From a bacterium (GTDB taxonomy: Bacteria; DRYD01): a DNA stretch of 50,621 nt. The notes under the pieces were generated by a model. It had not been told where the DNA came from and searched no databases. It was given only the letters and a program-made list of their open reading frames with translations. Where the stretch lies: positions 1 to 50,621 of the forward strand of contig JAOABG010000003.1 in assembly GCA_026418475.1 (NCBI GenBank). The letters run 5' to 3'. Shown in pieces: positions 1 through 35,367 of this stretch (its first letter is position 1; each line of letters begins with the position of its first letter). The position numbers were made by a program, and so were the translations under genes.

Positions 1-19
1 AGATGTGTATAAGAGACAG
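1..19. other. Nextera/Tn5 mosaic-end adapter remnant (AGATGTGTATAAGAGACAG), not genomic
   Basis: Exact 19-nt match to the Tn5 mosaic-end / Nextera read primer sequence at the very start of the contig. Confidence 0.9.
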
Positions 20-483
20 CTATAGGATTGTTCTAAAATTTCTTTAGCCTTTATCTGAGCCTCTTCTATGGCCTTTTTAATGATCATTTCTGCTTGTTTT
101 TGAGCTTCTGTTAAAACTGCTCCCTTCATGTTTTCTATTTCCTGAATTCTTAAGTTCTGTTCATTTATCTTTTGCTCAAGTTCCTCATTTAACTTCCTAT
201 ATTTATTTTTCTCCTCCTCAAGTTCAAATTCTATAGAAGATTTACCAACTATACTAACATCCTTAATCTCTTCAATAATTTCATTAACTGGTAAGGAAAC
301 ATCCTCTCTTTTTATTATTTTTTTGTTCAATTTTTCTTGATTTAACGAAATAGATACAATCTCCTTACCTAAAAAATCATGCTTAATAATATTACCCAAG
401 ATCTTTGAGGAAGTATAAGAATTATCTTTTTTCTCTTCAGAAAAATCCCTGTTATCAGATAAATTCTTTTTAATAATTCCCAT
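20..483 (-). CDS. Hypothetical coiled-coil protein, N-terminal part only (runs off the contig end)
   Basis: ATG at 483-481 opens a frame with no stop down to the contig start (my own translation: MGIIKKNLSDNRDFSEEKKD...EELEQKINEQNLRIQEIENMKGAVLTEAQKQAEMIIKKAIEEAQIKAKEILEQ). The charged heptad-like repeats resemble FliH, ATPase stalk or RNase Y-type coiled coils. The family is unresolved and the ORF is absent from the supplied track because it is truncated. Confidence 0.45.
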
Positions 484-550
484 AAACCTCTATTTTTTAT
501 TTTATAAAAATATAATATAAACTCCTACCAAACACAATTTATATTTTATT

Positions 551-589
551 TATTTAAAAAATTACTTTAAATTACTACCTTAAAGTAAT
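551..589 (-). terminator. Possible weak intrinsic terminator of alaS
   Basis: Perfect 10-bp inverted repeat ATTACTTTAA (561-570) / TTAAAGTAAT (580-589) with a 9-nt loop, followed on the minus strand by TTTTT. The stem is almost all A/T, so it is weak. It overlaps the alaS stop codon. Confidence 0.3.
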
Positions 590-3107
590 CTCCCAAAGGG
601 ATAAACCTAATTTTGTCTATTTTTACTAAATTCTTAAAATAATCGACAAAATCTTTGTGAAATACGGCTATCTTCTTATCTTTTAACCTGTAAAAAGCGA
701 AATACTTCTGCTTCAATTTTATAATGTCGTGAATAATAAAAATATCCTCTTCTTCTTCAACTTCAAATTCCAAAGGTTTGTTTTCAAAATTAAGTCCATC
801 AACATATTTCCTGTAAAATTTGATTTTCAAATCCCTGTTTTTCTTAGCCAATTCTTTGTTTTCATTCATTAACTTACCAACATAATTTATCAGATTATTT
901 TCCTCTTGTTTAGTAATAGTTTTCAATTGTGAATTCCTTTGTTCCAAAATTCTGGAAAATTCCAAGACTTTTAATGAGGTTATTGCTTCCAACCTCTTAA
1001 CTCCCATCTGTACAGAACCAGAACTAACTATTTTAAATATTCCAATAACAGAGGTATTTTTAACATGAGTTCCACCACAAAGCTCATAAGAAAATCCTCC
1101 AATCCTAACAGTCCTTACCAAATCAGGATATTTTTCTGCAAAAAGAGCAACAGCACCCTCATCCAAAGCAACTCTTAGAGGTTTGTAAGAAACCTCAACA
1201 TCAAATCCCTCCAATATTTTCTCATTTACCAAATCCTCTATATTCTTAACATCTAAATCCGAAAGATTATCAAAATGAGTAAAGTCAAACCTCAATTTAT
1301 CGTGATCAACTAAAGATCCAGCCTGGTAAACATGATGTCCCAAAATTTTTCTCAATGCGGAATGCAAAAGATGCGTAGCCGTATGATTTATAGCAGTCAA
1401 TTTTCTCCTATTTTTATCCACTGATAAATAAACATCATTTCCCAATCTGATAAAACCATTAACAATTCTACCTATGTGAAAAACAAAACCCTCTACATGT
1501 TTTTGGGTATCATCAACAATAAAAGTAAAATTTTCATTGAATATTTTCCCTTTATCACCAACTTGCCCTCCCGATTCAGGATAGAATGGAGTCTCCTGAA
1601 CTATAAGTATAACCTCATCATTACCTTCATAATAATCCAAAGAATTAAGCTTCCCATCTTCTCTTTTCAATATACCAATTACTTTGGATTGGTAATCCAG
1701 ATAATCATAACCCACAAAAGAAGTTGAGTACTTTTCCTTTATTGAAAATATTTTTATATCGACAGTTTTCTGACGTGACCTTTGCTTCTGAACCTCGAGT
1801 TCCTCATAAAACTCATTCAAATCAATAATAAAGTTCTGACTTTTAGATATTTCCAAAGTCAGTTCTATTGGAAACCCCAAAGTATCATATAAAAAGAAAG
1901 CATCTTTACCTGTAAGTTTTTTGAGATCAACTTTTGATAAATAATCCATACCTTTGGACAAATTCTTGGAAAATCCATTTTCCTCACTTTCTAACATCCG
2001 TTTTATATACTCTTTTCTGGAAGATATTTCAGGATAAACATCCCGATATATATACTCGACAATATTAGGTACTGTATTTAGATATGACACTTTTATTCCC
2101 AAAAGTCTGGAATAAAGCAGCGCTCTCCTGACAATTTTCCTGAGAACATACCCTCTCCCCTCATTAGAAGGAACAACACCATCTGCAAGTAAAAAAACCG
2201 AACCCCTTACATGATCAGCCACTATTCTTTTATAAATTTCTCTATTTTCCAGATATTTCTCATGATTGTATTTCATCTTTAACTCTTTATAAACTTCATC
2301 TACATCTTTATAGACCAATTCTTCCAATCTTGATATAATTGGTAAAAACAAATCTGTTTGATATTGATTTGGTTTTTCTTGGAGAATTTTGGTAAGTCTT
2401 TCTAATCCCATTCCCGTGTCTATGCTTTTTTGTGGAAGAGGAGAAAAACTTCCATCAGCTTCCTTGAAATACTGAGTAAAAACTATATTCCATATTTCTA
2501 TGAATCTTTCATTTTTTTCACATTCCTTACATTCATAACCAGGTTTACATGAAGGATTTGGACAGTTAAAATTTTCATAGAATATTTCACTTGATGGTCC
2601 ACAGGGGCCAGTTGGTCCCGCAGGCCCCCAAAAATTGTCTTCCAACCTAACTATTTTCTCTCTTTTTACTCCTAGACTCAGCCAAACTTCTTCCGCTTCA
2701 TCATCATTGGGATGACAACTGAAGTATAACTTTGAATGATCTATTTTGTAGACTTCTGTAAGAAGTTCATAGGCCCACTCAATAGATTCCCTTTTAAAAT
2801 AGTCTCCAAAAGAGAAATTTCCAAGCATCTCAAAAAAAGTATGATGTCTCAAAGTCAAACCAACATTATCTATATCATCCATTCTGAAACATTTTTGGCA
2901 AGTACTAACTCTTTTGTACTTTGGTTCAATTTTACCGGCAAATTCTGCTTTGAATGGAACCATACCAGCAGCGACAAATAAAAGAGAAGGGTCATTTTCT
3001 GGAATCAAACTGAAACTGTTAAGTACAACATGTCCCTTTTTCTCAAAGAAATTTAAGAAAGTGGTTCTTATTTGATTGTGGCTTAAAACTTGCTTCTGGT
3101 TCAACAT
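567..3107 (-). CDS. alaS: Alanine--tRNA ligase
   Basis: 851-aa ORF with AlaRS N-terminal signature (IRTTFLNFFEKKGH, AAGMVPFK), editing-domain motifs HTATHLLH and CGGTHV, and a C-terminal DHHA1-like tail. I moved the start from GTG 3122 to ATG 3107 because GGAGG lies 8 nt upstream of it. Confidence 0.95.
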   Translation of the reverse strand: MLNQKQVLSHNQIRTTFLNFFEKKGHVVLNSFSLIPENDPSLLFVAAGMVPFKAEFAGKIEPKYKRVSTCQKCFRMDDIDNVGLTLRHHTFFEMLGNFSFGDYFKRESIEWAYELLTEVYKIDHSKLYFSCHPNDDEAEEVWLSLGVKREKIVRLEDNFWGPAGPTGPCGPSSEIFYENFNCPNPSCKPGYECKECEKNERFIEIWNIVFTQYFKEADGSFSPLPQKSIDTGMGLERLTKILQEKPNQYQTDLFLPIISRLEELVYKDVDEVYKELKMKYNHEKYLENREIYKRIVADHVRGSVFLLADGVVPSNEGRGYVLRKIVRRALLYSRLLGIKVSYLNTVPNIVEYIYRDVYPEISSRKEYIKRMLESEENGFSKNLSKGMDYLSKVDLKKLTGKDAFFLYDTLGFPIELTLEISKSQNFIIDLNEFYEELEVQKQRSRQKTVDIKIFSIKEKYSTSFVGYDYLDYQSKVIGILKREDGKLNSLDYYEGNDEVILIVQETPFYPESGGQVGDKGKIFNENFTFIVDDTQKHVEGFVFHIGRIVNGFIRLGNDVYLSVDKNRRKLTAINHTATHLLHSALRKILGHHVYQAGSLVDHDKLRFDFTHFDNLSDLDVKNIEDLVNEKILEGFDVEVSYKPLRVALDEGAVALFAEKYPDLVRTVRIGGFSYELCGGTHVKNTSVIGIFKIVSSGSVQMGVKRLEAITSLKVLEFSRILEQRNSQLKTITKQEENNLINYVGKLMNENKELAKKNRDLKIKFYRKYVDGLNFENKPLEFEVEEEEDIFIIHDIIKLKQKYFAFYRLKDKKIAVFHKDFVDYFKNLVKIDKIRFIPLGDYFKVVI

Positions 3108-3280
3108 TTTGAAAACCTCCACTTGTTTTTAGCTTTCCATTTTAAGGAATTCTTGAGTGTAAAGTTTTTTACCTCTATAGAAAATTGATATAGATATTAA
3201 AACATAAATTTAAAAAATCTGTTCGTAGTTGTAATATACTACTATAATATATATTTATATAAAAGATAGTAGTAGTATAA

Positions 3281-3606
3281 TTATCCACATTTGTGGAAAA
3301 CTTTCATAATTTAAGTATTTGCAGGCTTTTACGATTTTGGGGGTATGTGGAAAAAGTGTGGAAAAAATGGGAAATGGGGTGGAAAAAAAAAGTTCTTTAA
3401 AAAAGTTTTCCACATGTTTTCCACATATTTGGGATATTTTTCCACATTTTAGGAAAAGTTTTCCACAAAAATACGATATTTTTTCCACATGTGGAAAAAA
3501 ATGTTAAAAATGTGGAAAAATGGGGGAAACGATGTGGAAAAATTTTTGGGGTATGTGGAAAACTATGTGGAAAAAATGTGGAAAAAGTCGAAAAAACGGT
3601 GGAAAA
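3281..3606. promoter_or_regulatory. Cluster of DnaA-box-type 9-mers: candidate oriC DnaA-assembly region or DnaA-titration locus
   Basis: TGTGGAAAA starts at 3292, 3346, 3357, 3490, 3511, 3533, 3554, 3566 and 3577. Its reverse complement TTTTCCACA starts at 3406, 3417, 3438, 3459 and 3481. A canonical TTATCCACA starts at 3281, and GGTGGAAAA variants start at 3378 and 3598. Spacings are about 11 or 21-22 bp. Confidence 0.7.
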
Positions 3607-4302
3607 ATGCCGATTTTAAATTATTACAAAAATGTAAATTAAATTAAAAATTTTTTAACAATTATTACAGAGTTATTACAAATATTACAGAAAAGTAAAA
3701 AATATTAAAAAATTTTTTGAATCCAAAAAACTAGTATTACCAACATAAAAAACATACAAATTTTGTAAAATATTTGTTAACTAAATGAAATTTTTGTTAA
3801 AAATAAAAAATTTAACAATTTTTGTTAAAAAAATATTATAAAATTATTAAAATTATTACAAAATTATTACAAATATTACAAAAAAATGAACATATAAAAT
3901 TTTTTACAAATTTAACATATTTTTTACAAATTTTACTTTGTTTTTACAAATTTAACATGAAAATTTTGTTAAAAATATGTTAAGTTATTGTTAAAAATGT
4001 TAAAAAAAATGATACAATTGTTACAAAATTATGTTGAATGTTAAAATTTTAGTGTAGCTTTTATTCTTACTCTACCAATAAATAAAAGATACAAAATTGT
4101 TAAATTTTTATGAAAAAAGTGTTACAATTGTTAAAATTTGTGCTACTTTGTTAAAAAATTATGACAAATATTACAAAAATATTGAAAAATTATTACAAAT
4201 CTTACAAAATTATTAACGAAATATTAATAAAATGTTAAAAAATTATTAAAATTTTGTTAAAAGTTGTAAGAAAATTACAATTTAAAAAATGACTAAATTT
4301 TA
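3607..4302. repeat. Extremely AT-rich field of phased short motifs (TTACAA/TTGTAA and TGTTAA/TTAACA families): candidate DNA-unwinding or accessory-protein binding region
   Basis: About 700 bp with no credible ORF. Nearly every C sits in a TTACA context and nearly every G in a TGTTA context. Palindromes ACAATTGT occur at 4014-4021 and 4124-4131, and the inverted repeat TTTAACAA-TTT-TTGTTAAA lies at 3811-3829. ATTATTACAAA-type units repeat about every 11 bp at 3852-3885. Confidence 0.55.
3901..3960 (+). repeat. Three tandem 20-bp repeats (TTTTTACAAATTTAACATAT / TTTTTACAAATTTTACTTTG / TTTTTACAAATTTAACATGA)
   Basis: Direct reading of 3901-3920, 3921-3940 and 3941-3960. Units 1 and 3 are identical over 18 nt. 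Confidence 0.8.
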
Positions 4303-5124
4303 CTAAATTTTTATATTTTCTATTTGCCTCTTGAATATGAAAAGGCTTAAAAATATCGCAATAAACGAAAGTATAAATGAAGCAGCTATAGCCGTGGGAA
4401 GATCAAAACTATGAAAAGCACGAGAATAAATATACATCATCAGGGTATACGTTGAAGTTCCTGGCCCCCCTTCAGTAACAATAAAAATCTCAGCAAAAAC
4501 TTTTAATGCCGCTAACATGGATAAAAAAGAAGCAAAATAGAAAGTACCTTTCAATAATGGTAAATAAATATACCACATTCTCTGAAAAAAACTCATCCCA
4601 TCCATAACAGAATTCTCTATTATCTCCTTTGATATTGAATACAAAGAAGATAAATAAATAACCACATAGTATCCTAAACCTTTCCAAAAAGTCAACATAA
4701 ACGCCACTAACATTGAATAATAGTAATTCGATAAAAATGGAATTTTCAATCCAAATATTTTTAATAAAAAGTCATTTACTGTTCCTTCATCATTGAACAT
4801 TATTTTGAATACAAAGCCAATACTTGCTATAGGAACAACTACAGGTAAATACAAGATAATCCTAAAGAATGATGCCCACCTATTTGATAAACTGTAAATA
4901 GTAAATGCTAAAAAAAAAGAGAACAATTGAAGTGGTATGACTATTAAACAGTATACAAATGAATTTTTCAATGAAATCCAAAATAATGGATCATTGAATA
5001 CAAATGAAAAACTTTCAGCTATCCCCACATTTTTGTAAACATATACAATACCCGAAATTATAGATAATACATTAAATACCAACCAAAAAATAATGAATGG
5101 AAAAATTAGATAAAAAAATCTCAT
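4303..5124 (-). CDS. Carbohydrate ABC transporter permease, MalF/UgpA type
   Basis: 273 aa and multi-TM, with an EAA-loop region followed by the TEGGPGTSTYTLMMYIY motif typical of the first permease of CUT1 sugar systems. Confidence 0.85.
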   Translation of the reverse strand: MRFFYLIFPFIIFWLVFNVLSIISGIVYVYKNVGIAESFSFVFNDPLFWISLKNSFVYCLIVIPLQLFSFFLAFTIYSLSNRWASFFRIILYLPVVVPIASIGFVFKIMFNDEGTVNDFLLKIFGLKIPFLSNYYYSMLVAFMLTFWKGLGYYVVIYLSSLYSISKEIIENSVMDGMSFFQRMWYIYLPLLKGTFYFASFLSMLAALKVFAEIFIVTEGGPGTSTYTLMMYIYSRAFHSFDLPTAIAASFILSFIAIFLSLFIFKRQIENIKI

Positions 5125-5519
5125 TCTCTGTTAAAAACTCTCATGTTTTCTCTTAACAATTCTATGTTGTTAATAATACAATTTAGAACTGTTCTTTGAA
5201 TTATTTTAACATCAACTTTCAAAGATTTGGGTAGTTTCAACTTTGTAGTTAAAAATAATAGTAATAATGAAAAATTTATACCATATAAAATTGGATAATT
5301 TATAATTTTTTTTAAATATTTCTTTTTTTCTCGTTTTTTTGTCAAATAGATCTTATAAAGTTCACTATCCAATTCAGAAAGTATTGAAAATATCCTAACT
5401 AAATTATTTAATATTTTGATATGTGCTTCGTATTTTGGGGATCTTGGAGATTTACAGATGTTTAGTAATGTCAATGCTGACTGTCTACAAATTAGGTTTA
5501 TTAATTTCCCACCATACAT
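5121..5519 (-). CDS. Hypothetical protein (Lys-rich, one hydrophobic segment)
   Basis: 132-aa ORF that exactly fills the gap between prfB and the permease, with 1-nt and 4-nt overlaps. I recognise no motif. Confidence 0.4.
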   Translation of the reverse strand: MYGGKLINLICRQSALTLLNICKSPRSPKYEAHIKILNNLVRIFSILSELDSELYKIYLTKKREKKKYLKKIINYPILYGINFSLLLLFLTTKLKLPKSLKVDVKIIQRTVLNCIINNIELLRENMRVFNRE

Positions 5520-6595
5520 TAGTTCTGTGTTTTTTGCATGTTATGGTAAAGTAGGTAATCTAAAATGAGTTTGTCTAAATCTCCATTCAAAACTTCATCA
5601 ACTTTGTAAATTTCAGTATTCGTCCGTAAATCTTTTATTAGTTTGTATGGATGTAATACATAGCTTCTTATTTGGTTTCCCCAAGCGGCCTGCTGTTTGG
5701 TTTTGAAACTGTCTACTTTTTGATTAATCCTATGTTTTTCCAAGTCATAGATTTTGCTTTTGAGTATTTTCATTGCTGTTTCTTTGTTTTGGTGTTGACT
5801 ACGTTCATTTGAACAGGTTACCACTATTCCTGTTGGGATATGTGTTATTCTGACTGCTGATTCATTTTTATTTACGTGTTGTCCTCCTGCTCCACCAGCT
5901 TTGAACGTTTCTATTTTCAAATCTTCTGGCTTGATCTCAACGTTAATGTTCTCATCTATTTTGGGAATAACTTCCACTAAAGCGAATGATGTGTGCCTTT
6001 TATTTTGTGCATTAAATGGAGAAGTTCTCACTAATCTGTGAACCCCTTTTTCTGATTTTAGGTATCCATAAGATGATTTGATTATTATTTCGCAGGATTT
6101 GATACCTGCTTCTTGACCATGTGTTATATCAGTTATGAAGTAGTTTAATTCATTTTTCTCTGCCCATTGTATATACATTCTCATTAGCATTTGAGCCCAA
6201 TCTTGTGCGTCTGTTCCTCCAGCACCTGAGGTTATTGTTAATATTGCATCATAATCATCATATTCTTCACTTAGAAGCAAGTCTATCGATAATTTTTCAA
6301 AATCTTGGATTATCTGTTTATATATGTTTTTTATATCCTCTAAGTCTTGGCTTTCATTACCGTAAGTTTTATATATATCTTCAAACTCATCAACTTCTTT
6401 ATAGAGGTTGTTATATTTTGATAATAATTCTGTTAACTTTTTCTTTTCTTTTATTTTTCTGAAATCTGGATTTAACTCGTTTGATAACTCTTTATCTATT
6501 TTCTCTGCTTTTAATAGTAGGTCGTCTATCAATGGCTTATACTCCATTAATTTATTCTTTATGTTTTTTATTTCTTTCAGATCTATTGTTACCAT
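5519..6595 (-). CDS. prfB: Peptide chain release factor 2
   Basis: SPF stop-codon recognition motif (RTSPFNAQ) and GGQ motif (GAGGQHVNK). It is a full-length single frame of 358 aa with no CTT TGA C frameshift site. Confidence 0.93.
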   Translation of the reverse strand: MVTIDLKEIKNIKNKLMEYKPLIDDLLLKAEKIDKELSNELNPDFRKIKEKKKLTELLSKYNNLYKEVDEFEDIYKTYGNESQDLEDIKNIYKQIIQDFEKLSIDLLLSEEYDDYDAILTITSGAGGTDAQDWAQMLMRMYIQWAEKNELNYFITDITHGQEAGIKSCEIIIKSSYGYLKSEKGVHRLVRTSPFNAQNKRHTSFALVEVIPKIDENINVEIKPEDLKIETFKAGGAGGQHVNKNESAVRITHIPTGIVVTCSNERSQHQNKETAMKILKSKIYDLEKHRINQKVDSFKTKQQAAWGNQIRSYVLHPYKLIKDLRTNTEIYKVDEVLNGDLDKLILDYLLYHNMQKTQN

Positions 6596-7062
6596 ACTCC
6601 CGTGTTTTGGTAAGTGTATATTTTATTGTTTCTTATGTCAATGTTAATTTTATATGATTTGTTGATTTTCTCCTCTTTTTTTAGATTTTTTATTATTGTA
6701 TCGTAACCTTCTATTTGCATTTTTTTCAGATTGATAATCGGATTTTTTTGTATATCTATGATAAATTCATTTGTATATATTTCCAAGGATTTTTCTGGCT
6801 TTACAATTAAGGTATTCAAATCTAAATACCCTTCTTCTATTTGAGTATACCCTTCTTTGAATACTATTTTCATTTCTTTAAATAATATCTGGTTGTTTTT
6901 GTATATACCTTGTTTTATTGAAAAGTATGTTTCTTCATTGATGTAATATTCAAGATTTTTAAATGAAAGTGAGTCTGGTTTGGTATTAATCTTTTTATTA
7001 CAACCCCAAAAACTTATTGTTATTATGAGTAATATTAGGCTAAGATTCAACAATTTCTCCAT
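6589..7062 (-). CDS. Putative small lipoprotein or secreted protein
   Basis: 157 aa with an N-terminal hydrophobic signal ending ...ISFWGC|NKK (lipobox-like Cys). No recognisable domain. Confidence 0.5.
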   Translation of the reverse strand: MEKLLNLSLILLIITISFWGCNKKINTKPDSLSFKNLEYYINEETYFSIKQGIYKNNQILFKEMKIVFKEGYTQIEEGYLDLNTLIVKPEKSLEIYTNEFIIDIQKNPIINLKKMQIEGYDTIIKNLKKEEKINKSYKINIDIRNNKIYTYQNTGVW

Positions 7063-9727
7063 TTATTATCTTTATTCTTATTTTTCGTTTTTTCCCTTTA
7101 TTTTTTATTCTATATTCTATCAATTTTAGGAGATTTAATGTTGGTTGTGGTAGGTTTTTGCCATATATGTCAATGATTTCTTTTTTTAGGATTTGAAGTT
7201 CTTGTAAATTTTTGGTTGTTAGTAGTTGCCTGTATAATTTATTTTTTATTGGGCTGTCAGGGAGGAAAGTGGGTGCATCACACTCTATCTCTGGTAAATC
7301 TTCTTCTTGATTCAAATATTGATTGATCATTTTTAAGAATTGGATTAGTCCTATCTGTTCAACGTTTCCAGATTGTTTTTTGGATAGTATCGATCCAGGA
7401 CCTCTTATATCCATATCTTTTTGTGCTATGTCTATATTGGAAAGATTATCATTTTCAAAGATGGATATCCTTTCAAATGTTGGTGTGTTGACAAAATTTT
7501 CTTGAATTAAGATATAACAGTAAGGTTTTTTGCTACCTCTTCCTACCCTTCCTCTGAGTTGATATAGTTGTGATATACCTAACATTTGGCTGTTATCTAT
7601 TATTATCACATCAAATTCGGGAGTGTCTACACCGGATTGAACTATTGTGGTGGAAAGTATTATGTCAAATTTACCTTCTATGAAATCCATAAATGTTTTT
7701 TGAATAGTTTTCGAATTTAGCTTTGCATGAATGATTGAGCTTTTTGCAATATTTCTGAAATAATACCATTTTTCATAAAGCTCGTCTATGTTATTGTTAA
7801 CATATATTATCTTCAGTGAGTAATTTAGAGATTTTCTTATTAATTTTTCTAATAGTAACAGTTTATGGGGGTTATCAGTAAATGTTAGAATAAATGTTTT
7901 TGGGGGTTTATATGTTGGTGGTGGAGTGTTAATAACTGAGATATCCAATATTCCAGCTTTTGCCATGAAATAGGTTCTTGGTATTGGTGTAGCTGAAGAG
8001 TATAAAAAATGAGCTTTTTTGAACATTCCTTTTAGAGTTTCTTTGAAAATTGTTCCCATTAAATGCTCCTCATCTATCACAACTAATCCTATGTTATCAC
8101 CACCGGTATTATATTTTGTTATATCAAATGGAGTGGATATTAACAAGTCTGTATTATTCTGGTACAGATCATTCAAACTTGCTGTTTTGTATAGAGAGGT
8201 GTTTATACCTATTCTAAAATCTTTTAATCTTTTTGTCATGTTCATATAATGCTGGTAAGCTAATATTGTTGTTGGAACAAATAATATGGATTTGTAGTTA
8301 TTTGACAAGCTTCTTACAATTGCTCTTATTATTACTTCCGTTTTACCGTAACCGGTGTCTGCAAGAATTAATCTGTTTGATGGGAAAGGTTTTTCTAAAT
8401 CGGCTAGAACCTCATTTATTACTTTTTCTTGATCTTCTGTTAATATGTAATCAAATGTTTCTTCAATGTATTTATCGTATTCGTTGGGTATCAATTTATG
8501 TGCTGGTGTTGAGTATCTTTCCGCATTGATTTGTATTATTTTTTGTCCAATGGTTTTAATATCCTCATATACTTTTTCAAGTTTTTTTTGCCATGATTTA
8601 AAAGAGGGTATTGAGAGTATCTTCTCTTTAATTTTTTCTGTTACCTTTTCTGAAGATAAATATTTATGTAGATTTACACTTTCTACAGAGAAGTGGATTT
8701 TTCTATTTTTTTTGAATTGTATTGTTACGAATTCTTTTTCTGGATAATGTGAGATCTTCAATTTTTGGATTCCCAAATATATTCCTATTCCGTATCCTTC
8801 AACTACTACTAAATCTCCCTCTCTAAATTCTTTTATTGAATCAACCACATTGGTATTATGAATAATCGGTTCTTCTTTTAGATCTCTCATGGTGATAAAT
8901 ATTTGGCGATTTTCGTGATCAACAAATCCAAATATTGAATCTACTTCAAGAATTTCGTAATTCGCAATATTGAATTCATCTATGCTCATTCTCTTTTTTT
9001 TACAGTATTCTATTATAAAATTGGTAAATTCTTCAAATGTTTCTTGATTGGAAAAGGTTATTCTATAGTCTCTATGATCTCTTATTAGTTTTGTTATTTC
9101 GTATTTTGTATTAATTTTTTTGAGGCTTTTTCTCGGAACTATATTTAATACGTTCCAATCCACGTCTATATATAGGTTTTCTAGTTCTTTTTGTATTAGA
9201 TTTTCTGCTATTTCCTTCTCTTCTAAGCTTAAGAAGAGAATTTTGAGATGACTTGTTAAATTTTTATCGTTTGGATTATTATTCCCATAAATTTTGGTGG
9301 AATTTATTTTTTTTATGCTCAATAGTGTTTGTGGATCAAAAGTTCTTATGGATTCTATTTTGCCATCTTCTATTTCTACCCTTACTGGTGTATTACAATT
9401 AATATCTACTATATTTCCTCTTATTTGATAAGAGTTTTTTTCTATTATGTCATTTGATTGTTTGTACCCCATTTTATTTAGAATCTCTATTAATGTTTCT
9501 TGACTAATATTTTGGTTTGTTCTTAGTTTAAGGGTATCAGTTTTGAGGATTTCCTTTATTACGTAATTTATATTTTTGTAGTTACAGATCGGTATATCTG
9601 CTTTGTTGAGTATTTCAAACTCTTCTGGATTGAGTTTTTCTTCAATAACAAAAATTACGTTATCATACGATGATAAATCAGTGGGTATATTATTGATATT
9701 TTCTTTGAGAACAAGGTTATAAAACAT
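7040..9727 (-). CDS. mfd: Transcription-repair coupling factor (Mfd), short N-terminus
   Basis: CarD/TRCF RNAP-interaction motif (FREGDLVVVEGYGIGIYLG), SF2 Walker A (ADTGYGKTE), DEEH box (VIDEEH), motif VI (QLRGRVGRG) and a C-terminal TRCF-like region. It is 895 aa, against about 1100-1200 aa for typical Mfd. Confidence 0.85.
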   Translation of the reverse strand: MFYNLVLKENINNIPTDLSSYDNVIFVIEEKLNPEEFEILNKADIPICNYKNINYVIKEILKTDTLKLRTNQNISQETLIEILNKMGYKQSNDIIEKNSYQIRGNIVDINCNTPVRVEIEDGKIESIRTFDPQTLLSIKKINSTKIYGNNNPNDKNLTSHLKILFLSLEEKEIAENLIQKELENLYIDVDWNVLNIVPRKSLKKINTKYEITKLIRDHRDYRITFSNQETFEEFTNFIIEYCKKKRMSIDEFNIANYEILEVDSIFGFVDHENRQIFITMRDLKEEPIIHNTNVVDSIKEFREGDLVVVEGYGIGIYLGIQKLKISHYPEKEFVTIQFKKNRKIHFSVESVNLHKYLSSEKVTEKIKEKILSIPSFKSWQKKLEKVYEDIKTIGQKIIQINAERYSTPAHKLIPNEYDKYIEETFDYILTEDQEKVINEVLADLEKPFPSNRLILADTGYGKTEVIIRAIVRSLSNNYKSILFVPTTILAYQHYMNMTKRLKDFRIGINTSLYKTASLNDLYQNNTDLLISTPFDITKYNTGGDNIGLVVIDEEHLMGTIFKETLKGMFKKAHFLYSSATPIPRTYFMAKAGILDISVINTPPPTYKPPKTFILTFTDNPHKLLLLEKLIRKSLNYSLKIIYVNNNIDELYEKWYYFRNIAKSSIIHAKLNSKTIQKTFMDFIEGKFDIILSTTIVQSGVDTPEFDVIIIDNSQMLGISQLYQLRGRVGRGSKKPYCYILIQENFVNTPTFERISIFENDNLSNIDIAQKDMDIRGPGSILSKKQSGNVEQIGLIQFLKMINQYLNQEEDLPEIECDAPTFLPDSPIKNKLYRQLLTTKNLQELQILKKEIIDIYGKNLPQPTLNLLKLIEYRIKNKGKKRKIRIKIINGEIVES

Positions 9728-9734
9728 TCGGTTA

Positions 9735-10541
9735 TCATTTTCCTGAAATACCTTTTACTAAGTATTCTTCTAAGAAAGAGACGATGATAATCAAGGGGAA
9801 TATTGAAATGAATACTCCTGCCATGATCATTCCCCAAGGTATCTCAAATATATCAGAACCACTTATCAGAGTTACCCCGACTGTCAAAGTCCTTTTTACA
9901 CTTTCATTTGTCAGGGTTAAAGCAAATATGAATTCATTCCAAAAACCTATGAATTGAAGAATCCAAACACTTATAAACGCTTGTTTTATCATTGGTAAGA
10001 CTATTAAAAACATTATTTGTAAATTGTTCATTCCTTCTACTATTCCTGCTTCTTCATAATCTTTTTTCAGATTACTTATAAACCTACTTAACAATATAAA
10101 AGAGAAAACGAAACCTAAAGAAGTGTAAACAATTATCAGTCCGACTAGTGTGTTGTAAACACCCATCTTTACAATTATTTCAAATATTGGAACTATTATT
10201 AAAACTCCTAGTACTAAAAAAGTGTTGAGTAGCAAAAAAATGTTCTCTAAAATATTTGAGAATGGTAACTTCTTTCTAACGACCGAGTATGCCAATATAA
10301 ATCCCAGAAAAGTGGTTATCGTTGCAGATATTGAAGAAACCACAACACTGTTATAAACATAATGTAAAATGTTAGGATCGCTCAAAATGTAAAGATAATT
10401 ACCCAGTGTCCATTCAGAAAATTTACCCTGAGATATTGACTTATTCGGCAAAAGGGAGTATATAAATGTTATCAATATTGGAAACAAGCTATATAAAACA
10501 ACAATTAATATTAGAATGTTATTAAGAATTCTCTGAACCAT
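9735..10541 (-). CDS. Carbohydrate ABC transporter permease, MalG/UgpE type
   Basis: 268 aa with six TM-like segments, an EAA loop (YEEAGIVEGMNNLQIMFLIVLPM) and the WNEFIFAL motif typical of the second CUT1 permease. Confidence 0.85.
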   Translation of the reverse strand: MVQRILNNILILIVVLYSLFPILITFIYSLLPNKSISQGKFSEWTLGNYLYILSDPNILHYVYNSVVVSSISATITTFLGFILAYSVVRKKLPFSNILENIFLLLNTFLVLGVLIIVPIFEIIVKMGVYNTLVGLIIVYTSLGFVFSFILLSRFISNLKKDYEEAGIVEGMNNLQIMFLIVLPMIKQAFISVWILQFIGFWNEFIFALTLTNESVKRTLTVGVTLISGSDIFEIPWGMIMAGVFISIFPLIIIVSFLEEYLVKGISGK

Positions 10542-10645
10542 CCTATTTTCTAAAAATTTTATTCTTTCATTTTTACCTTTAACCTTTTTACAGAATAAAT
10601 AGATTTATACAGGTTTGTTTAAGTTATTATCAAATAGATATTTTA

Positions 10646-12574
10646 ATGGAAAATACGTTTGGTAAATTTTTTTCGCTCTTTCTTTTATTTTTGAGGAACA
10701 TTTTAAGAGGAGTTTTTATGTTTTTCATATTTGTTTTTATTGTTTTTATGGATGTTTTTAATAGTAAATCTTTTGATTATTTTTACGAATACTTTGAAAG
10801 TAAAAAGGAAAGTGACAAACCAAAAATAATAGCCCTATATTTTTCTATTCCTACTTTTGAAAAATTGCAAAGAAGGTACATAAAAGAGTTTTACTTTTTG
10901 GAAAAGTTTTTTCATATGAATAAAGTAAGATACTTGATACTAACAGATAGGAATATTAATTTATTAGAAAAGGATATTGATCTATTAGTTGTTAGTGATG
11001 CCAGATTTGTTCCCATAAGTACCCTCTTGAAGTTCCAAGAGTATTCAAAAAACGGTAAAATAATATTCACTTATCAGAGTTTAATGTTCAATCAATTTGG
11101 TATGAAATACTCTCAGGAAATACTCAAAGATTTTGGTTTGTATGATATAGTTTTTGTCAATAGAAAATATGAAAATTTTAGCTTCAGACATTTTACTAAG
11201 ATTAAAATATCAAGGGGATATGGTGTTGAATATTATGCCAATGAGAATAATGTATTGGCCTGGAGTTCAAATAAAACTCCCTTTATTTTAAATTATAACA
11301 ATTATTACTTTATAGCTGAGAATACTTTTTGTATTGAAAATCTGTCTAATCCCTATATTTTTGATTTCAATGTGTATTTTCTGAATTATGTTCTACCAGA
11401 TTTGATTAGCGATCAGAATACTAAAGATAAGATAAAAAACAATGTTAGCAATATTGAAATTATATTTCCTATTGAATATATTTTAAATAATAATAAAACA
11501 AAGAGGTATTTCTATTATTCTAAAAAAATGAAACTAATTTTGGATGAGATTGATAGTCTACAAAAATTATCTAATTCGCAAAATTTTTCAACTCTAATTA
11601 GGGTAGGAGTTAATAAAATTAGACCTCAAGAATTTACCACAACCAAATTTGTGAATTATTTGGGTAAAAACTTTTACCTGCTTGTTAAAAAAGATTCTCA
11701 AGGAGGAATAGCTGAATACTATAGCTACAAGTTAAAAAGTGTAGTTTCTTACAATCCTTTTATCATAAGTGTTTACTTAGAGGATTATATATCTTCTGTG
11801 GTTTTGAGTGAGATGCCAGATTTTTTTGAGTTGGAAGCTCTCAAAGCTCAAGCTGTTGCAGCAAGAACTTACGCTATTAAAAATAGGAATAGACACCAGA
11901 ATTATGATCTGTGTGATAAACCTCATTGTCAAAATTTTGAAGGAGAAAAACAGGAAACATTTAAAAGCTATATATCAACTTTTTCTACATTTGGAAAGAT
12001 AATATTATATAATGGATTACCAATAGATGCTGTTTATCATTCAACATGTGGTGGATTAACAGCCAATTCCGAAGATGTATGGAATAAAAATGTTCCTTAT
12101 CTAAGGTCTGTAAAGGATTACAAAGAAAAAATTGATGATGCCTATTGTAAAGAATCAAGGTTATTCAAATGGAAAATAGAAATAAAAAAAGATCGTTTAG
12201 AAAAAATGCTTTCAAATACAGTTCCTCACATTCTTGGTACTGGATTTAATGGAAAGCTCAAAAATATAAAACTTCAAAAAAATAAGAGCGGAAGAATTGA
12301 AAAATTGACAATAATCACTACTAAAAGTACTTACTACACCTATAGAGATAACTCTATTTATCTTTTTTCAGAAGATTTATATTTCAGTTTGCTTCCATCA
12401 AATTTTATTGATGAAATAAAAATTAACAATGATGGTGTTGTTTTTTTTGGTAGAGGGTTTGGACATGGTGTCGGTATGTGCCAGTTTGGTGCCAACTACT
12501 TGGCAAAAAAATATAACTATATACAAATAATAAAGCATTACTATAGAAATGTTGAAATAGATCTAATAAAGTAG
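10646..12574 (+). CDS. SpoIID/LytB-domain protein with long N-terminal extension
   Basis: The C-terminal half carries SpoIID motifs (EALKAQAVAARTYAIKN, HSTCGGLTANSEDVW, GFGHGVGMCQFGANYLA). The first ~380 aa follow a TM segment and are unassigned. Confidence 0.85.
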   Translation: MENTFGKFFSLFLLFLRNILRGVFMFFIFVFIVFMDVFNSKSFDYFYEYFESKKESDKPKIIALYFSIPTFEKLQRRYIKEFYFLEKFFHMNKVRYLILTDRNINLLEKDIDLLVVSDARFVPISTLLKFQEYSKNGKIIFTYQSLMFNQFGMKYSQEILKDFGLYDIVFVNRKYENFSFRHFTKIKISRGYGVEYYANENNVLAWSSNKTPFILNYNNYYFIAENTFCIENLSNPYIFDFNVYFLNYVLPDLISDQNTKDKIKNNVSNIEIIFPIEYILNNNKTKRYFYYSKKMKLILDEIDSLQKLSNSQNFSTLIRVGVNKIRPQEFTTTKFVNYLGKNFYLLVKKDSQGGIAEYYSYKLKSVVSYNPFIISVYLEDYISSVVLSEMPDFFELEALKAQAVAARTYAIKNRNRHQNYDLCDKPHCQNFEGEKQETFKSYISTFSTFGKIILYNGLPIDAVYHSTCGGLTANSEDVWNKNVPYLRSVKDYKEKIDDAYCKESRLFKWKIEIKKDRLEKMLSNTVPHILGTGFNGKLKNIKLQKNKSGRIEKLTIITTKSTYYTYRDNSIYLFSEDLYFSLLPSNFIDEIKINNDGVVFFGRGFGHGVGMCQFGANYLAKKYNYIQIIKHYYRNVEIDLIK

Positions 12575-20047: not shown

Positions 20048-22149
20048 CTAATATTGTGGTATAAACTTTTTTGATTGATCTATACCAATATTTATTCCTA
20101 ATATTGGTAGTGCTTTTAGGTATGCATAAAAATAGAGCTGTTTTAATGAACTTCTATAAACTATATAATTTACCCAACAGTGGTTATCTTTTATAAGCAC
20201 TAAATCCACATAATCTATTTTTTTAGTAAAAGAATTATAGTTGAACCATGTTGTTAGACGTAGACTTTGGGATATATGCCAATCTATATTGGTATTTATG
20301 TTTGTGAATGAGTTTCTTTTTGTATCAAATGTTGTGAAAATACTTGCAGTAAATTTGTTATTAGGAAAATATTTAAAATTGACGCTTATTGGACTTATTG
20401 AACCAGTATTGAGATTATAGTTTGTTGATAAGTTTAGATCAAAAGTTCTGTTATTAAAAATGGAAAGGTTGGCTGAGAGGTTTTGATACTTTCCTGTAAA
20501 ATCAGCAAATATCGGAGCAAATCCTTTCCCAAAATTATAAGTGTAATTTATATTTAATTTGTAATTTTTTTTAATTAAACTGAAGTTTGAAGTGAATGAA
20601 TGAACATAAGAAGCATGAAAGTTCCTATCGGAATAGTATTTACCAGTATCAAAGAAATTCTGTTTAAAAATACCATTTGTTGTCCAATTTAAATCCTTAT
20701 CTTTTATGTGTTGAATATGGTAATTCAGAAATAGCTGATATTTAGTTGTGTTTCTGTTGAACCTTGGTTCTTTGTATTTACCCAGAAATATTGAAGGTGA
20801 TATTGTTATTCTATCTCTGAATTTTATGGGTTTGTTCAATTTTAATGTCAATTCAGGAAGTTTATTCACTCCAAAGAAACCATAGTTATTCGTTGTGTTA
20901 TCCAATAATAAAGATAATGTATATAAATCTTTTGAAAATGTATAATTTAAGTCCAATTTTACATTTTGACTTGTCTGAAAGTTATTGGTTATAAAGTAAT
21001 TGTTTTGTAGATCATTTAGATTAAAGTTAAAGTTGAAGTTCTTAAAATTACCTGATAACCTCAGGAATTGGTTAAGTGAAGAAAACTGTTTTTCTGTTGA
21101 TGTTTTACTGGAAGTATAACTTATATTTATTCCTTTTATATTTGTTGTGAATCCATAGGATATACTTTCTGTAAGTGGAGCCTTGAAATTTCTATATATT
21201 GATCTGTTACTTGAGTATCTGACAAAGATATTTAACTGATTTCCTGTTAAATTAAGGTTGGTGTTGATATTTCTGAAACTGTTACCAAACTTTTTATTGT
21301 TGTTAATGAATAAGTAGTTATCAAATTTAACATTTATTTTTCCTATTTGTTTGGTGTAGTAACTATTTACTCCATAGTATATTCCAGTGTATTGTCCATA
21401 TTTTGTTAATATCTTTCCATAGTTTGAATTGTTAAAAAAATAATCAAAGTTTTTAGTAATAAAGAAGCCATCTGTGTTGTTATATCCTATTTTTGGGAAT
21501 GCCGATGTATCTTCTTGTGGAAGTTGTGGGATTTTTTTCCGCTTTAAAGGTATTATTAATTTTTTGTATCCAAATATTTGATTTTTGTACAGAAACATTT
21601 TGGAATTGGAAAGTATCATTTTATCTTCGGGTATGACATCAACTTTTTGTGAATTGAGAATGTAATGCTTATCATCAAAATGATCATATTCGCATAAATT
21701 ACAGGTTGAAAATTTAACATCTTCAAAGGTGTATTTATTTGAAAAGAGATATATTTGTGAATACTCAAAGAATAGTTTATCTTTGAGTTTCAAAGGTTCT
21801 TCACCGAAGTTAGTGATGTAACCTGCTCCTCTTGCTCCATATATCTTTTCTATTTTACCTTCAGTGTTGTATTCAACTTCTAACTTTTCAGTTACAAATT
21901 CATCTTGAGTTTCTAAATTTTTGATGAATGTTTTTCCTGGTATCGTAATTTTTCTTTTTTCTTTGTCTATATTGGCGTTGGATGATTTCAACCAGTATTG
22001 ATTGGTATATATTTCTATAGTTTGGTTAATTTCTATTTTTTGGGGGTCTGATACTATTTGTGGGGTATAGAGAATTATATCTGTTTCTCTAGGATATGAT
22101 GGAAAGAACGTAATGAGTAGTAATGTTATTATGAAAAAAAAAACTTCAT
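20048..22149 (-). CDS. LptD/OstA-like outer-membrane beta-barrel protein; ATG is out of frame across a T10 tract
   Basis: About 700 aa, rich in N/Y/F beta-strand patterns, ending in an aromatic residue (..IPQY). It has an LptD-like central motif (VKFSTCNLC...HYILNSQKVDVIPEDKMILSNSKMFLYKNQIF). The tracked ORF start at 22204 reads through a tRNA. The only ATG downstream of the tRNA (22149) is 1 nt out of frame, separated from the long frame by a T10 run (22134-22143). Confidence 0.6.
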
Positions 22150-22157
22150 TTTTATTG

Positions 22158-22231
22158 CAGGGCGGAGAGGATTCGAACCCCCGACCAATGGATTTGGAGT
22201 CCACCGCTCTACCAAACTGAGCTACCGCCCT
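22158..22231 (-). tRNA. trnW: tRNA-Trp (anticodon CCA)
   Basis: Minus-strand sequence AGGGCGGTAGCTCAGTTTGGTAGAGCGGTGGACTCCAAATCCATTGGTCGGGGGTTCGAATCCTCTCCGCCCTG. It has a 7-bp acceptor stem (AGGGCGG/CCGCCCT), a D-arm GCTC/GAGC, an anticodon loop CTCCAAA and a TTCGAAT T-loop. Confidence 0.9.
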
Positions 22232-35025: not shown

Positions 35026-35367
35026 TTACAATTTTTTAATAATAAAAGTAAAAATGAAAGAACCAGAAGATGGAATTTTATCCTGCACTTTAAGTATCTT
35101 TATAATGGTTTCCCTTATTTTTCTTTTCAGATGATTTCTTATTACCGCTTTTCCCACTTTTTTAGAAATAATTATTCCATACTTTAGTGTTAAAATTTTT
35201 GTATCAAAATGGTAGACTTTGATATTTAGTATTAAAGAATCTTCAAAGAGTTTTATTGAGTACTTTCTTATGTAATGATATTTTTTATCAAATACTTCTT
35301 GTATTTCTTTTCTTTTTAGTGATGATAATTTTATTTTTGTGAATTTGGTTCTTATTTGGTGTTCCAA
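35026..35367 (-). CDS. rnpA: Ribonuclease P protein component
   Basis: 113 aa, basic, with an RNR-like motif (ISKKVGKAVIRNHLKRKIRE). Confidence 0.8.
   Translation of the reverse strand: MEHQIRTKFTKIKLSSLKRKEIQEVFDKKYHYIRKYSIKLFEDSLILNIKVYHFDTKILTLKYGIIISKKVGKAVIRNHLKRKIRETIIKILKVQDKIPSSGSFIFTFIIKKL

Follow-up and report, generated by a model that had tools for sequence, protein, structure and literature searches.

A conserved, helically phased array of DnaA boxes upstream of alaS as the probable chromosomal replication origin of a Candidatus Calescibacterium species

The 50,621-nt stretch of bacterial DNA studied here (contig JAOABG010000003.1; hereafter the window) comes, judging from the relatives of its AlaRS protein, from a Candidatus Calescibacterium, a member of the candidate phylum Calescamantes (Calescibacterota) of hot springs at about 80 °C. 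The phylum is without cultured members, and the papers searched describe no origin of replication for it. The longest intergenic stretch of the window, a gap of about 1.2 kb at positions 3108-4302 between alaS and a gene for an ABC-transporter permease, contains a dense array of putative binding sites for the initiator protein DnaA. On the evidence of the sequence we propose, with a probability of roughly 85%, that this alaS-permease gap is the chromosomal oriC of the species. We prefer an oriC to a DnaA titration site because the array is conserved box for box in related lineages, because a module of TAG repeats and A+T-only DNA adjoins it, and because the strand skew switches nearby. The kind of element is already known, and what is described is a regular and conserved example that leaves current concepts unchanged; only an AT-rich repeat tract and the head-on orientation of the neighboring genes are without clear precedent.

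The array is made of 17 DnaA-box 9-mers in 326 bp (3281-3606): 14 exact copies of TGTGGAAAA or its reverse complement TTTTCCACA, one TTATCCACA and two GGTGGAAAA. TGTGGAAAA starts at nine positions of the plus strand (3292, 3346, 3357, 3490, 3511, 3533, 3554, 3566 and 3577) and TTTTCCACA, which is TGTGGAAAA on the minus strand, at five (3406, 3417, 3438, 3459 and 3481). These sites are organized in blocks, which we compared with those of related loci (L001, L003, L123 and L132, described below). A head-to-head pair at 3281-3300, in which TTATCCACA (3281-3289) and TGTGGAAAA (3292-3300) are separated by TT, is invariant in all lineages. It is followed by a first forward block (3346-3386, plus strand), with TGTGGAAAA at 3346 and 3357 and GGTGGAAAA at 3378, present as the same block in L001, L003, L123 and L132; by a reverse block of five TTTTCCACA (3406-3489, minus strand), with the same count and spacing in every lineage; and by a second forward block (3490-3606, plus strand), where exact search gives six TGTGGAAAA (3490-3577) and GGTGGAAAA at 3598. 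This last block also carries an invariant two-mismatch box, TGTTAAAAA, in phase at 3502. The order is thus one reverse/forward pair, then a block of three forward sites, one of five reverse sites and one of eight forward sites, the weak one included. The junction of the reverse block with the second forward block forms an 18-bp palindrome at 3481-3498.

All 14 exact copies present in the window fall within 3292-3585. Dinucleotide shuffles of the window contain 1.0 copy on average and never more than 3, and no second box cluster was found elsewhere in the window when one mismatch was allowed. Start-to-start spacings are 11, 21, 21 and 22 bp in the reverse block and 21, 22, 21, 12, 11 and 21 bp in the last forward block. 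A 10.5-bp period describes the centers of the 17 sites with a mean resultant of 0.74; of 2000 random placements only one attains this value, and the arrays of the relatives give 0.76-0.84. The box and palindrome coordinates listed in a preliminary description of this DNA agree with our reading and exact search, and so do the spacings; the 10.5-bp fit bears out the helical phasing reported there.

We read the motif as a DnaA box because TTTTCCACA fits the classical consensus TTWTNCACA, because it is recognized elsewhere, and because one canonical TTATCCACA is present; 15 of the 17 sites match the consensus exactly, the remaining two being GGTGGAAAA. TTTTCCACA has been described as the "species-specific" box of Synechococcus and Chlamydiae, where origins also lie away from dnaA. 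The gap contains no GATC sites, so that no Dam-type control is expected, and no IHF or Fis consensus was recognized in it by visual inspection, a formal scan not being part of that reading. Neither the gap nor its AT-rich part gave an Rfam match near any gathering score. Small open reading frames (ORFs) crossing the array were rejected as genes: the spacers between boxes diverge, and an 11-bp, box-sized indel is present.

The arrangement and the 9-mer, whose conservation in related genomes the preliminary description had put forward as a check, are kept in four lineages. The same array lies upstream of alaS in L001 (metagenome-assembled genome SKYB25; AlaRS 94% identical, 14 exact boxes), in L003 and L123 (69%, 16 boxes) and in L132 (66%, 15 boxes), and the alaS-array-permease layout is shared across this range of 94-66% AlaRS identity. 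In L002 (67%) the contig begins inside the array, in the terminal box pair (positions 1-70). Block order is alike in all, with a reverse-forward pair, three forward boxes, five reverse boxes and then five to eight forward ones, and the palindrome is retained in L001, L003/L123 and L132. When the window is aligned with L003, box positions are identical at 151 of 153 sites (99%) and spacer positions at 100 of 173 (58%), the sole length change being the insertion of one whole extra box. Since the boxes are near-identical, the spacers have diverged and the only length change is an entire box, the pattern indicates that selection acts on sites bound by protein and on the helical register in which they stand. 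A more distant relative (L133 9356-10000 and L134 2316-2960; AlaRS 57%, about 23% G+C) has a 645-bp gap upstream of alaS without a DnaA-box array, which limits the linkage of origin and alaS to the clade in which AlaRS identity is at least 66%.

Several further observations were made on these loci. A 99%-identical partial alaS (protein P0122) is truncated on a 2,097-bp contig and, together with the end of the L002 contig, suggests that short-read assemblies tend to break at the array. In L003, of a Tibetan lineage, a TnpB/IS605-OrfB-like fragment (10360-10968) lies 4.4 kb past alaS, and the gene content there includes an ankyrin-repeat protein and adk, where L001 and L132 have fliH-fliI-fliJ instead. 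A metagenome scan with the 18-bp palindrome as query returned mostly unrelated organisms with one box pair; only L123 proved an orthologue, and L127 and L130 represent another element. The latter (L130 1690-2180, contig AUXO013000845.1, about 37-39% G+C, unrelated to the window; L127 is the same element) has 15 DnaA boxes in 190 bp, a mixture of TTATCCACA and TTTTCCACA mostly in palindromic pairs, with iteron-like TAACTAACT and AGTTAGTTAG repeats directly beside them and small ORFs nearby, and looks like a plasmid or phage origin.

Between the alaS leader and the first box lies a candidate DNA-unwinding module (3236-3280), which the preliminary description had overlooked, as it had the AT-rich repeat array at 3607-4302. 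It consists of the arm ATACTACTAT (3236-3245), a 20-nt core (3246-3265) that is all A/T save one G at its right end, and the arm ATAGTAGTAGTAT (3266-3278), so that an A/T-only run of 22 bp (3243-3264) stands beside the boxes. The arms form an inverted repeat (DNA fold z = -3.15) of TAC and TAG units that places 5'-TAGTAG on each strand, one at each end of the core. The plus strand reads 5'-TAG-TAG-TAG-TAT-AAT at 3267-3281, with (TAG)3 at 3267-3275 directly 5' of the first boxes. The module is essentially invariant in four lineages, and L002 retains this terminal module, unlike the adjoining alaS leader and promoter region (3108-3235, minus strand), which is only weakly conserved among lineages; in the alignment conservation falls sharply past the TAG module.

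A basal unwinding system (BUS) has been defined as a DnaA box with no more than two mismatches and, no farther than 16 bp from it, three or more NAN trios of consensus 5'-TAG / 3'-GAT (PMC8287927). In agreement with that definition, the trios here abut the TTATCCACA at 3281 and lie 7-16 bp from the TGTGGAAAA at 3292. Three 5'-TAG repeats constitute the essential DnaA-binding element within the Thermotoga maritima DNA-unwinding element (DUE), required for unwinding and single-strand binding, and the DnaA-trios of Bacillus subtilis and Helicobacter pylori are TAG-rich as well. The module resembles the B. subtilis BUS and the T. maritima DUE in its tandem 5'-TAG units immediately beside DnaA boxes and in its A/T-only stretch; like the T. 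maritima eTrio it has three exact TAG, and the TAT-AAT that follows is comparable with AAA-TAA-TA of that species. It differs from both in having no GC-rich spacer, in that its nearest box is inverted and head-to-head rather than part of a tandem pair, in the mirroring of its trios by TAC repeats across the A/T core, and in the number of boxes, 17 here and 5-7 there. Taken together, by its letters, the gap carries the pattern of DnaA boxes, DnaA-trios and AT-rich DNA of known origin-unwinding modules, the AT-rich part being the 22-bp A/T run on one side of the boxes and, on the other, a 696-bp tract of 13.6% G+C.

Strand composition around the locus was measured per gene on the plus strand, as skews at third codon positions (GC3, AT3) and at four-fold degenerate sites (AT4), the latter leaving out the G that is fixed in ATG and TGG. 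In the genes beyond about 5.5 kb on the right, GC3 is +0.15 for 10 on the plus strand and +0.21 for 37 on the minus strand, and T exceeds A, AT4 being -0.21 and -0.26 respectively; the third-position skew thus marks the plus strand as the leading strand there, despite the majority of minus-strand genes. To the left of the array, alaS has the opposite signs (GC3 -0.30, AT3 +0.13, AT4 +0.30). A similar change is seen in the four-fold A/T skew of L001 (+0.34 in six pooled alaS-side genes, -0.29 in far-side genes) and of L003 (+0.18 on the alaS side, -0.16 on the far side, with genes of opposite orientation included), and GC3 changes sign between the two sides in both loci as well. In L132 all 16 genes are on one strand, which removes the confounding effect of orientation, and four-fold G:C is 51:89 in the five farthest permease-side genes and 136:110 on the alaS side. 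Because the strand reading away from the locus is G- and T-rich on both sides, the polarity is that of an origin and not of a terminus. The local genes, as opposed to a whole-genome curve, place the switch only within about 3.1-5.5 kb, that is, within about 2 kb of the array.

Several observations weigh against the proposal that this gap is oriC, and some of them concern the skew itself. The permease has the skew of the alaS side in every lineage, so that the apparent switch falls at about 5.1-5.5 kb and not at the boxes; the alaS-side values come from 3-12 kb of sequence; and the A/T skew of L132 does not flip. The permease is peculiar in another respect, in that its coding-strand four-fold G:C ratio (16:5 in the window, 4303-5124; 18:2 in L001, 3989-4810; 18:1 in L003, 3612-4436; 21:0 in L132, 8122-8943) shows a G excess far beyond that of any other gene and not shared by a second permease at 9735-10541; strand-specific damage next to an origin is a possible cause. 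Gene orientation is also atypical, since a rightward fork would meet head-on 37 of the 47 genes right of the array (4303-50334), those of the minus strand, although gene-strand bias differs among phyla. In L132 all eight permease-side genes (1-8943) also point into the array. Transcription into an origin over at least 47 kb would be unusual; the read-through may be likened to that from mioC at E. coli oriC.

The geometry of the module likewise fits a BUS only in part. In a BUS the TAG strand runs 5' to 3' into TGTGGATAA, usually in a tandem pair; here the box nearest the TAG repeats (3281) is inverted with respect to E. coli R1, and it is the second box (3292) and the first forward block that are correctly oriented. 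In T. maritima a uniform box direction has been found not to be strictly required. Finally, protein family searches revealed no dnaA or dnaN in the window and no rpmH beside rnpA (35026-35367), and neither dnaA, dnaN nor rpmH was found within the 10-12 kb fetched around the loci of the relatives. It is therefore possible that a rival box cluster, linked to dnaA, lies in another part of the genome. The organism's own DnaA was not retrieved either: a regular-expression scan of all loci gave only high-GC DnaA-like ORFs, and a search with Aquifex DnaA, rebuilt from a PDB alignment, returned Aquificota. The most AT-biased DnaA match (P0119) was rejected as belonging to this organism, being on a 35% G+C contig without boxes.

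On the permease side of the boxes the gap continues as a second array (3607-4302, plus strand; 696 bp) with about 27 short, strand-biased repeats of two types, (A)TTACAAA and TGTTAAA(AA). TTACAAA occurs 12 times and TGTTAAA 11 times, against 1.1 and 1.4 in dinucleotide shuffles, and their reverse complements occur once and four times. The repeats are spaced by 9-11 or 20-22 bp, the two types alternate in blocks, and tandem units of 11 and 20 nt are present. Comparable enrichment and strand bias are seen in L001 and L003; in L132, where only strands were counted, TTACAAA is found 5 times against 0 with fewer copies overall, the shuffle test being confined to the other lineages. Across lineages the tract measures 524-928 bp at 13-18% G+C and its sequence drifts, being weakly alignable between the window and L003 (z = 6). 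The gap shared by L003 and L123 has in addition, beside the permease, about 260 bp that are not AT-rich and are missing from the window (L003 4437-4700). Eight of the 12 plus-strand copies of TGTTAAAAA in the window lie in 3490-4302, and TGTTAAAAA is possibly a weak DnaA box. The reading of TTACAAA itself as a degenerated DnaA box in reverse orientation is not supported, since the majority of copies read ATTATTACA with at least three mismatches, and the periodicity of AAAA, which would suggest A-tract curvature, is not above that of shuffles. It is conceivable, if rather unlikely, that the second array is a functional origin component without described counterpart, be it a giant zone of unwinding and helicase loading adapted to about 80 °C, a field of dozens of weak DnaA sites that would prolong the strong array, or a platform for a novel origin protein.

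The alternatives can be weighed with these features in mind. In the first of them the gap is oriC as we propose, with unwinding and helicase loading taking place in 3607-4302, an oversized DUE whose tandem 11-mers would correspond to the 13-mers of E. coli; in that case the TAG/TAC module would be accessory or would belong to the alaS promoter. The second array is indeed the least stable DNA of the gap, with its 13.6% G+C and with A/T-only runs that reach 34 bp, compared with 22 bp in the TAG module; its tandem 10-11-nt units have one T-rich strand, the feature is conserved in four lineages, and the skew transition is on that side of the boxes and not on the alaS side. However, the adjoining second forward block points the wrong way for the box-to-trio geometry, no TAG-type trios adjoin the second array, and its variable length of 524-928 bp and drifting sequence contrast with the invariant TAG module. 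We regard this alternative, the chief rival within the oriC reading, as doubtful.

It is less likely still that the second array is an iteron-like field for a second, lineage-specific origin protein, whether a cofactor, a nucleoid protein or a regulator acting with DnaA. Both motif families exceed shuffles about 10-fold in the three lineages tested, their orientation is near-uniform, and their spacing by one or two helical turns and arrangement in blocks are as would be expected of such a field. The unrelated element L130 shows that DnaA boxes can stand directly beside a distinct iteron set, and iteron and DnaA-box origins in general (plasmids, Vibrio chromosome 2, L130) resemble the locus in having boxes beside oriented, phased direct repeats in AT-rich DNA. 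The repeats here are nevertheless short (7-11 nt), degenerate and of low information in DNA of 13% G+C, as opposed to iterons of 17-22 nt, and the locus is chromosomal, among housekeeping genes and syntenic across lineages. No candidate gene for a DNA-binding protein is linked to it: no Rep- or RctB-type gene was found in the window or in the fetched relatives, and two conserved small ORFs (5121-5519 and 6589-7062) matched no family and are not DNA-binding-like. The TGTTAAAAA family, moreover, is a two-mismatch DnaA box that is also in phase within the DnaA array, so that the ligand may be none other than DnaA.

A DnaA titration or regulatory locus of the datA, DARS or B. subtilis cluster type, with the true oriC elsewhere and probably beside dnaA, seems to us very unlikely. 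In its favor are the lack of dnaA and dnaN within 47 kb, a gene orientation that does not switch at the array, and the occurrence of dense box clusters outside oriC in E. coli; B. subtilis also has such clusters. Like our locus, datA is an intergenic DnaA-box cluster away from dnaA. It has few boxes (two consensus and four with one misfit, around an essential IHF site on which it depends) as opposed to 17 phased sites, it lacks a trio/AT-core module, and it is not at a skew switch. The invariant module of TAG trios and A+T core and the 0.7-kb AT-rich tract are features of an unwinding region, and a skew change of origin sense nearby is not expected on a replichore arm. The preliminary description had left the choice open between oriC and a datA-type locus; conservation, the TAG module and the skew favor the former, and the number of boxes, the module and the skew speak against the latter. 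An origin of a prophage or plasmid was rejected on account of the housekeeping synteny across lineages and because neither a rep nor a mobile gene stands next to the array in the window.

As an oriC, the locus can be compared with other origins that lie away from dnaA; linkage to dnaA, dnaN or rpmH is common at origins but does not define them, and many accepted ones are without it. That of E. coli (gidA-oriC-mioC) also has phased boxes in opposed blocks with weak sites interspersed, and one neighbor is transcribed into it (mioC) and the other out of it (gidA), as on the permease side and in alaS here. The locus differs from it in having 14 identical strong 9-mers rather than three, three blocks rather than two, no GATC, and a 0.7-kb AT-rich repeat tract without E. 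coli counterpart. The origins of Synechococcus and other cyanobacteria, and those proposed for Chlamydiae, share with it the dominance of TTTTCCACA and the distance from dnaA; phylum, neighbors, box number and block layout differ, and the comparison implies no homology at the sequence level. Box numbers of 13 (Thermus) and 19 (Streptomyces) are also known from other origins. Absence of dnaA, orientation blocks and box density, all of which had been called unusual, are thus less exceptional than was stated, since there are precedents for dnaA-distant origins, for opposed blocks and for origins with at least 13 boxes, as there are for the TTTTCCACA box.

These features suggest how initiation might proceed. 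Domain IV of DnaA would fill the identical boxes, which share one face of the helix, and oligomers of ATP-DnaA would extend along the blocks. From its anchorage at the 3281/3292 pair and the first forward block, the oligomer would capture the single-stranded 5'-TAG-TAG-TAG strand, the candidate single-stranded targets of DnaA in the module being 5'-TAGTAGTAG and the strand of the complementary arm. This capture would melt the A/T core (about 3243-3265) in the manner of the basal unwinding system of B. subtilis and T. maritima, after which helicases would be loaded and forks would leave both ways, with transcription coming in from the permease side and going out through alaS. The AT-rich array may aid opening or bubble expansion, or hold many weak DnaA sites (TGTTAAAAA), which is a guess. 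With TAC/TAG repeats mirrored across the core, DnaA may be able to capture either strand, and it is speculation that 5'-TAGTAG on each strand could serve loading on both.

The surroundings of the gap were largely as the preliminary description had them, including its standing as the largest gap, its alaS and permease flanks, the absence of dnaA and dnaN, an rnpA without rpmH and a majority of minus-strand genes. The alaS gene (alanine--tRNA ligase; 567-3107, minus strand; TIGR00344, E 7e-243) reads away from the array, and its start is likely the ATG at 3107 behind GGAGG, where the mechanical ORF opens instead at a GTG at 3122. The sugar-type ABC-transporter permease gene (4303-5124, minus strand) is the last of a run transcribed toward the array. 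In an exact-sequence index neither alaS, with two alternative starts, nor the permease of the window had any record. Farther to the right a tRNA-Trp gene (CCA; 22157-22231) overlaps the 5' end of a listed 718-aa ORF (20048-22204); because of this overlap the GTG start of the ORF is probably over-extended, and its product has no Pfam match.

The locus would provide a confident origin assignment for the candidate phylum Calescamantes (Calescibacterota), an anchor for replichore orientation, for peak-to-trough growth estimates from hot-spring metagenomes and for genome finishing. It is a natural design of great regularity, with 14 identical boxes in three orientation blocks, a mirrored (TAG)3 across an A/T core and an AT-rich tract, and it may offer a clean substrate on which to follow how DnaA oligomers build on opposed blocks and at which point the DNA of a hyperthermophile begins to unwind.

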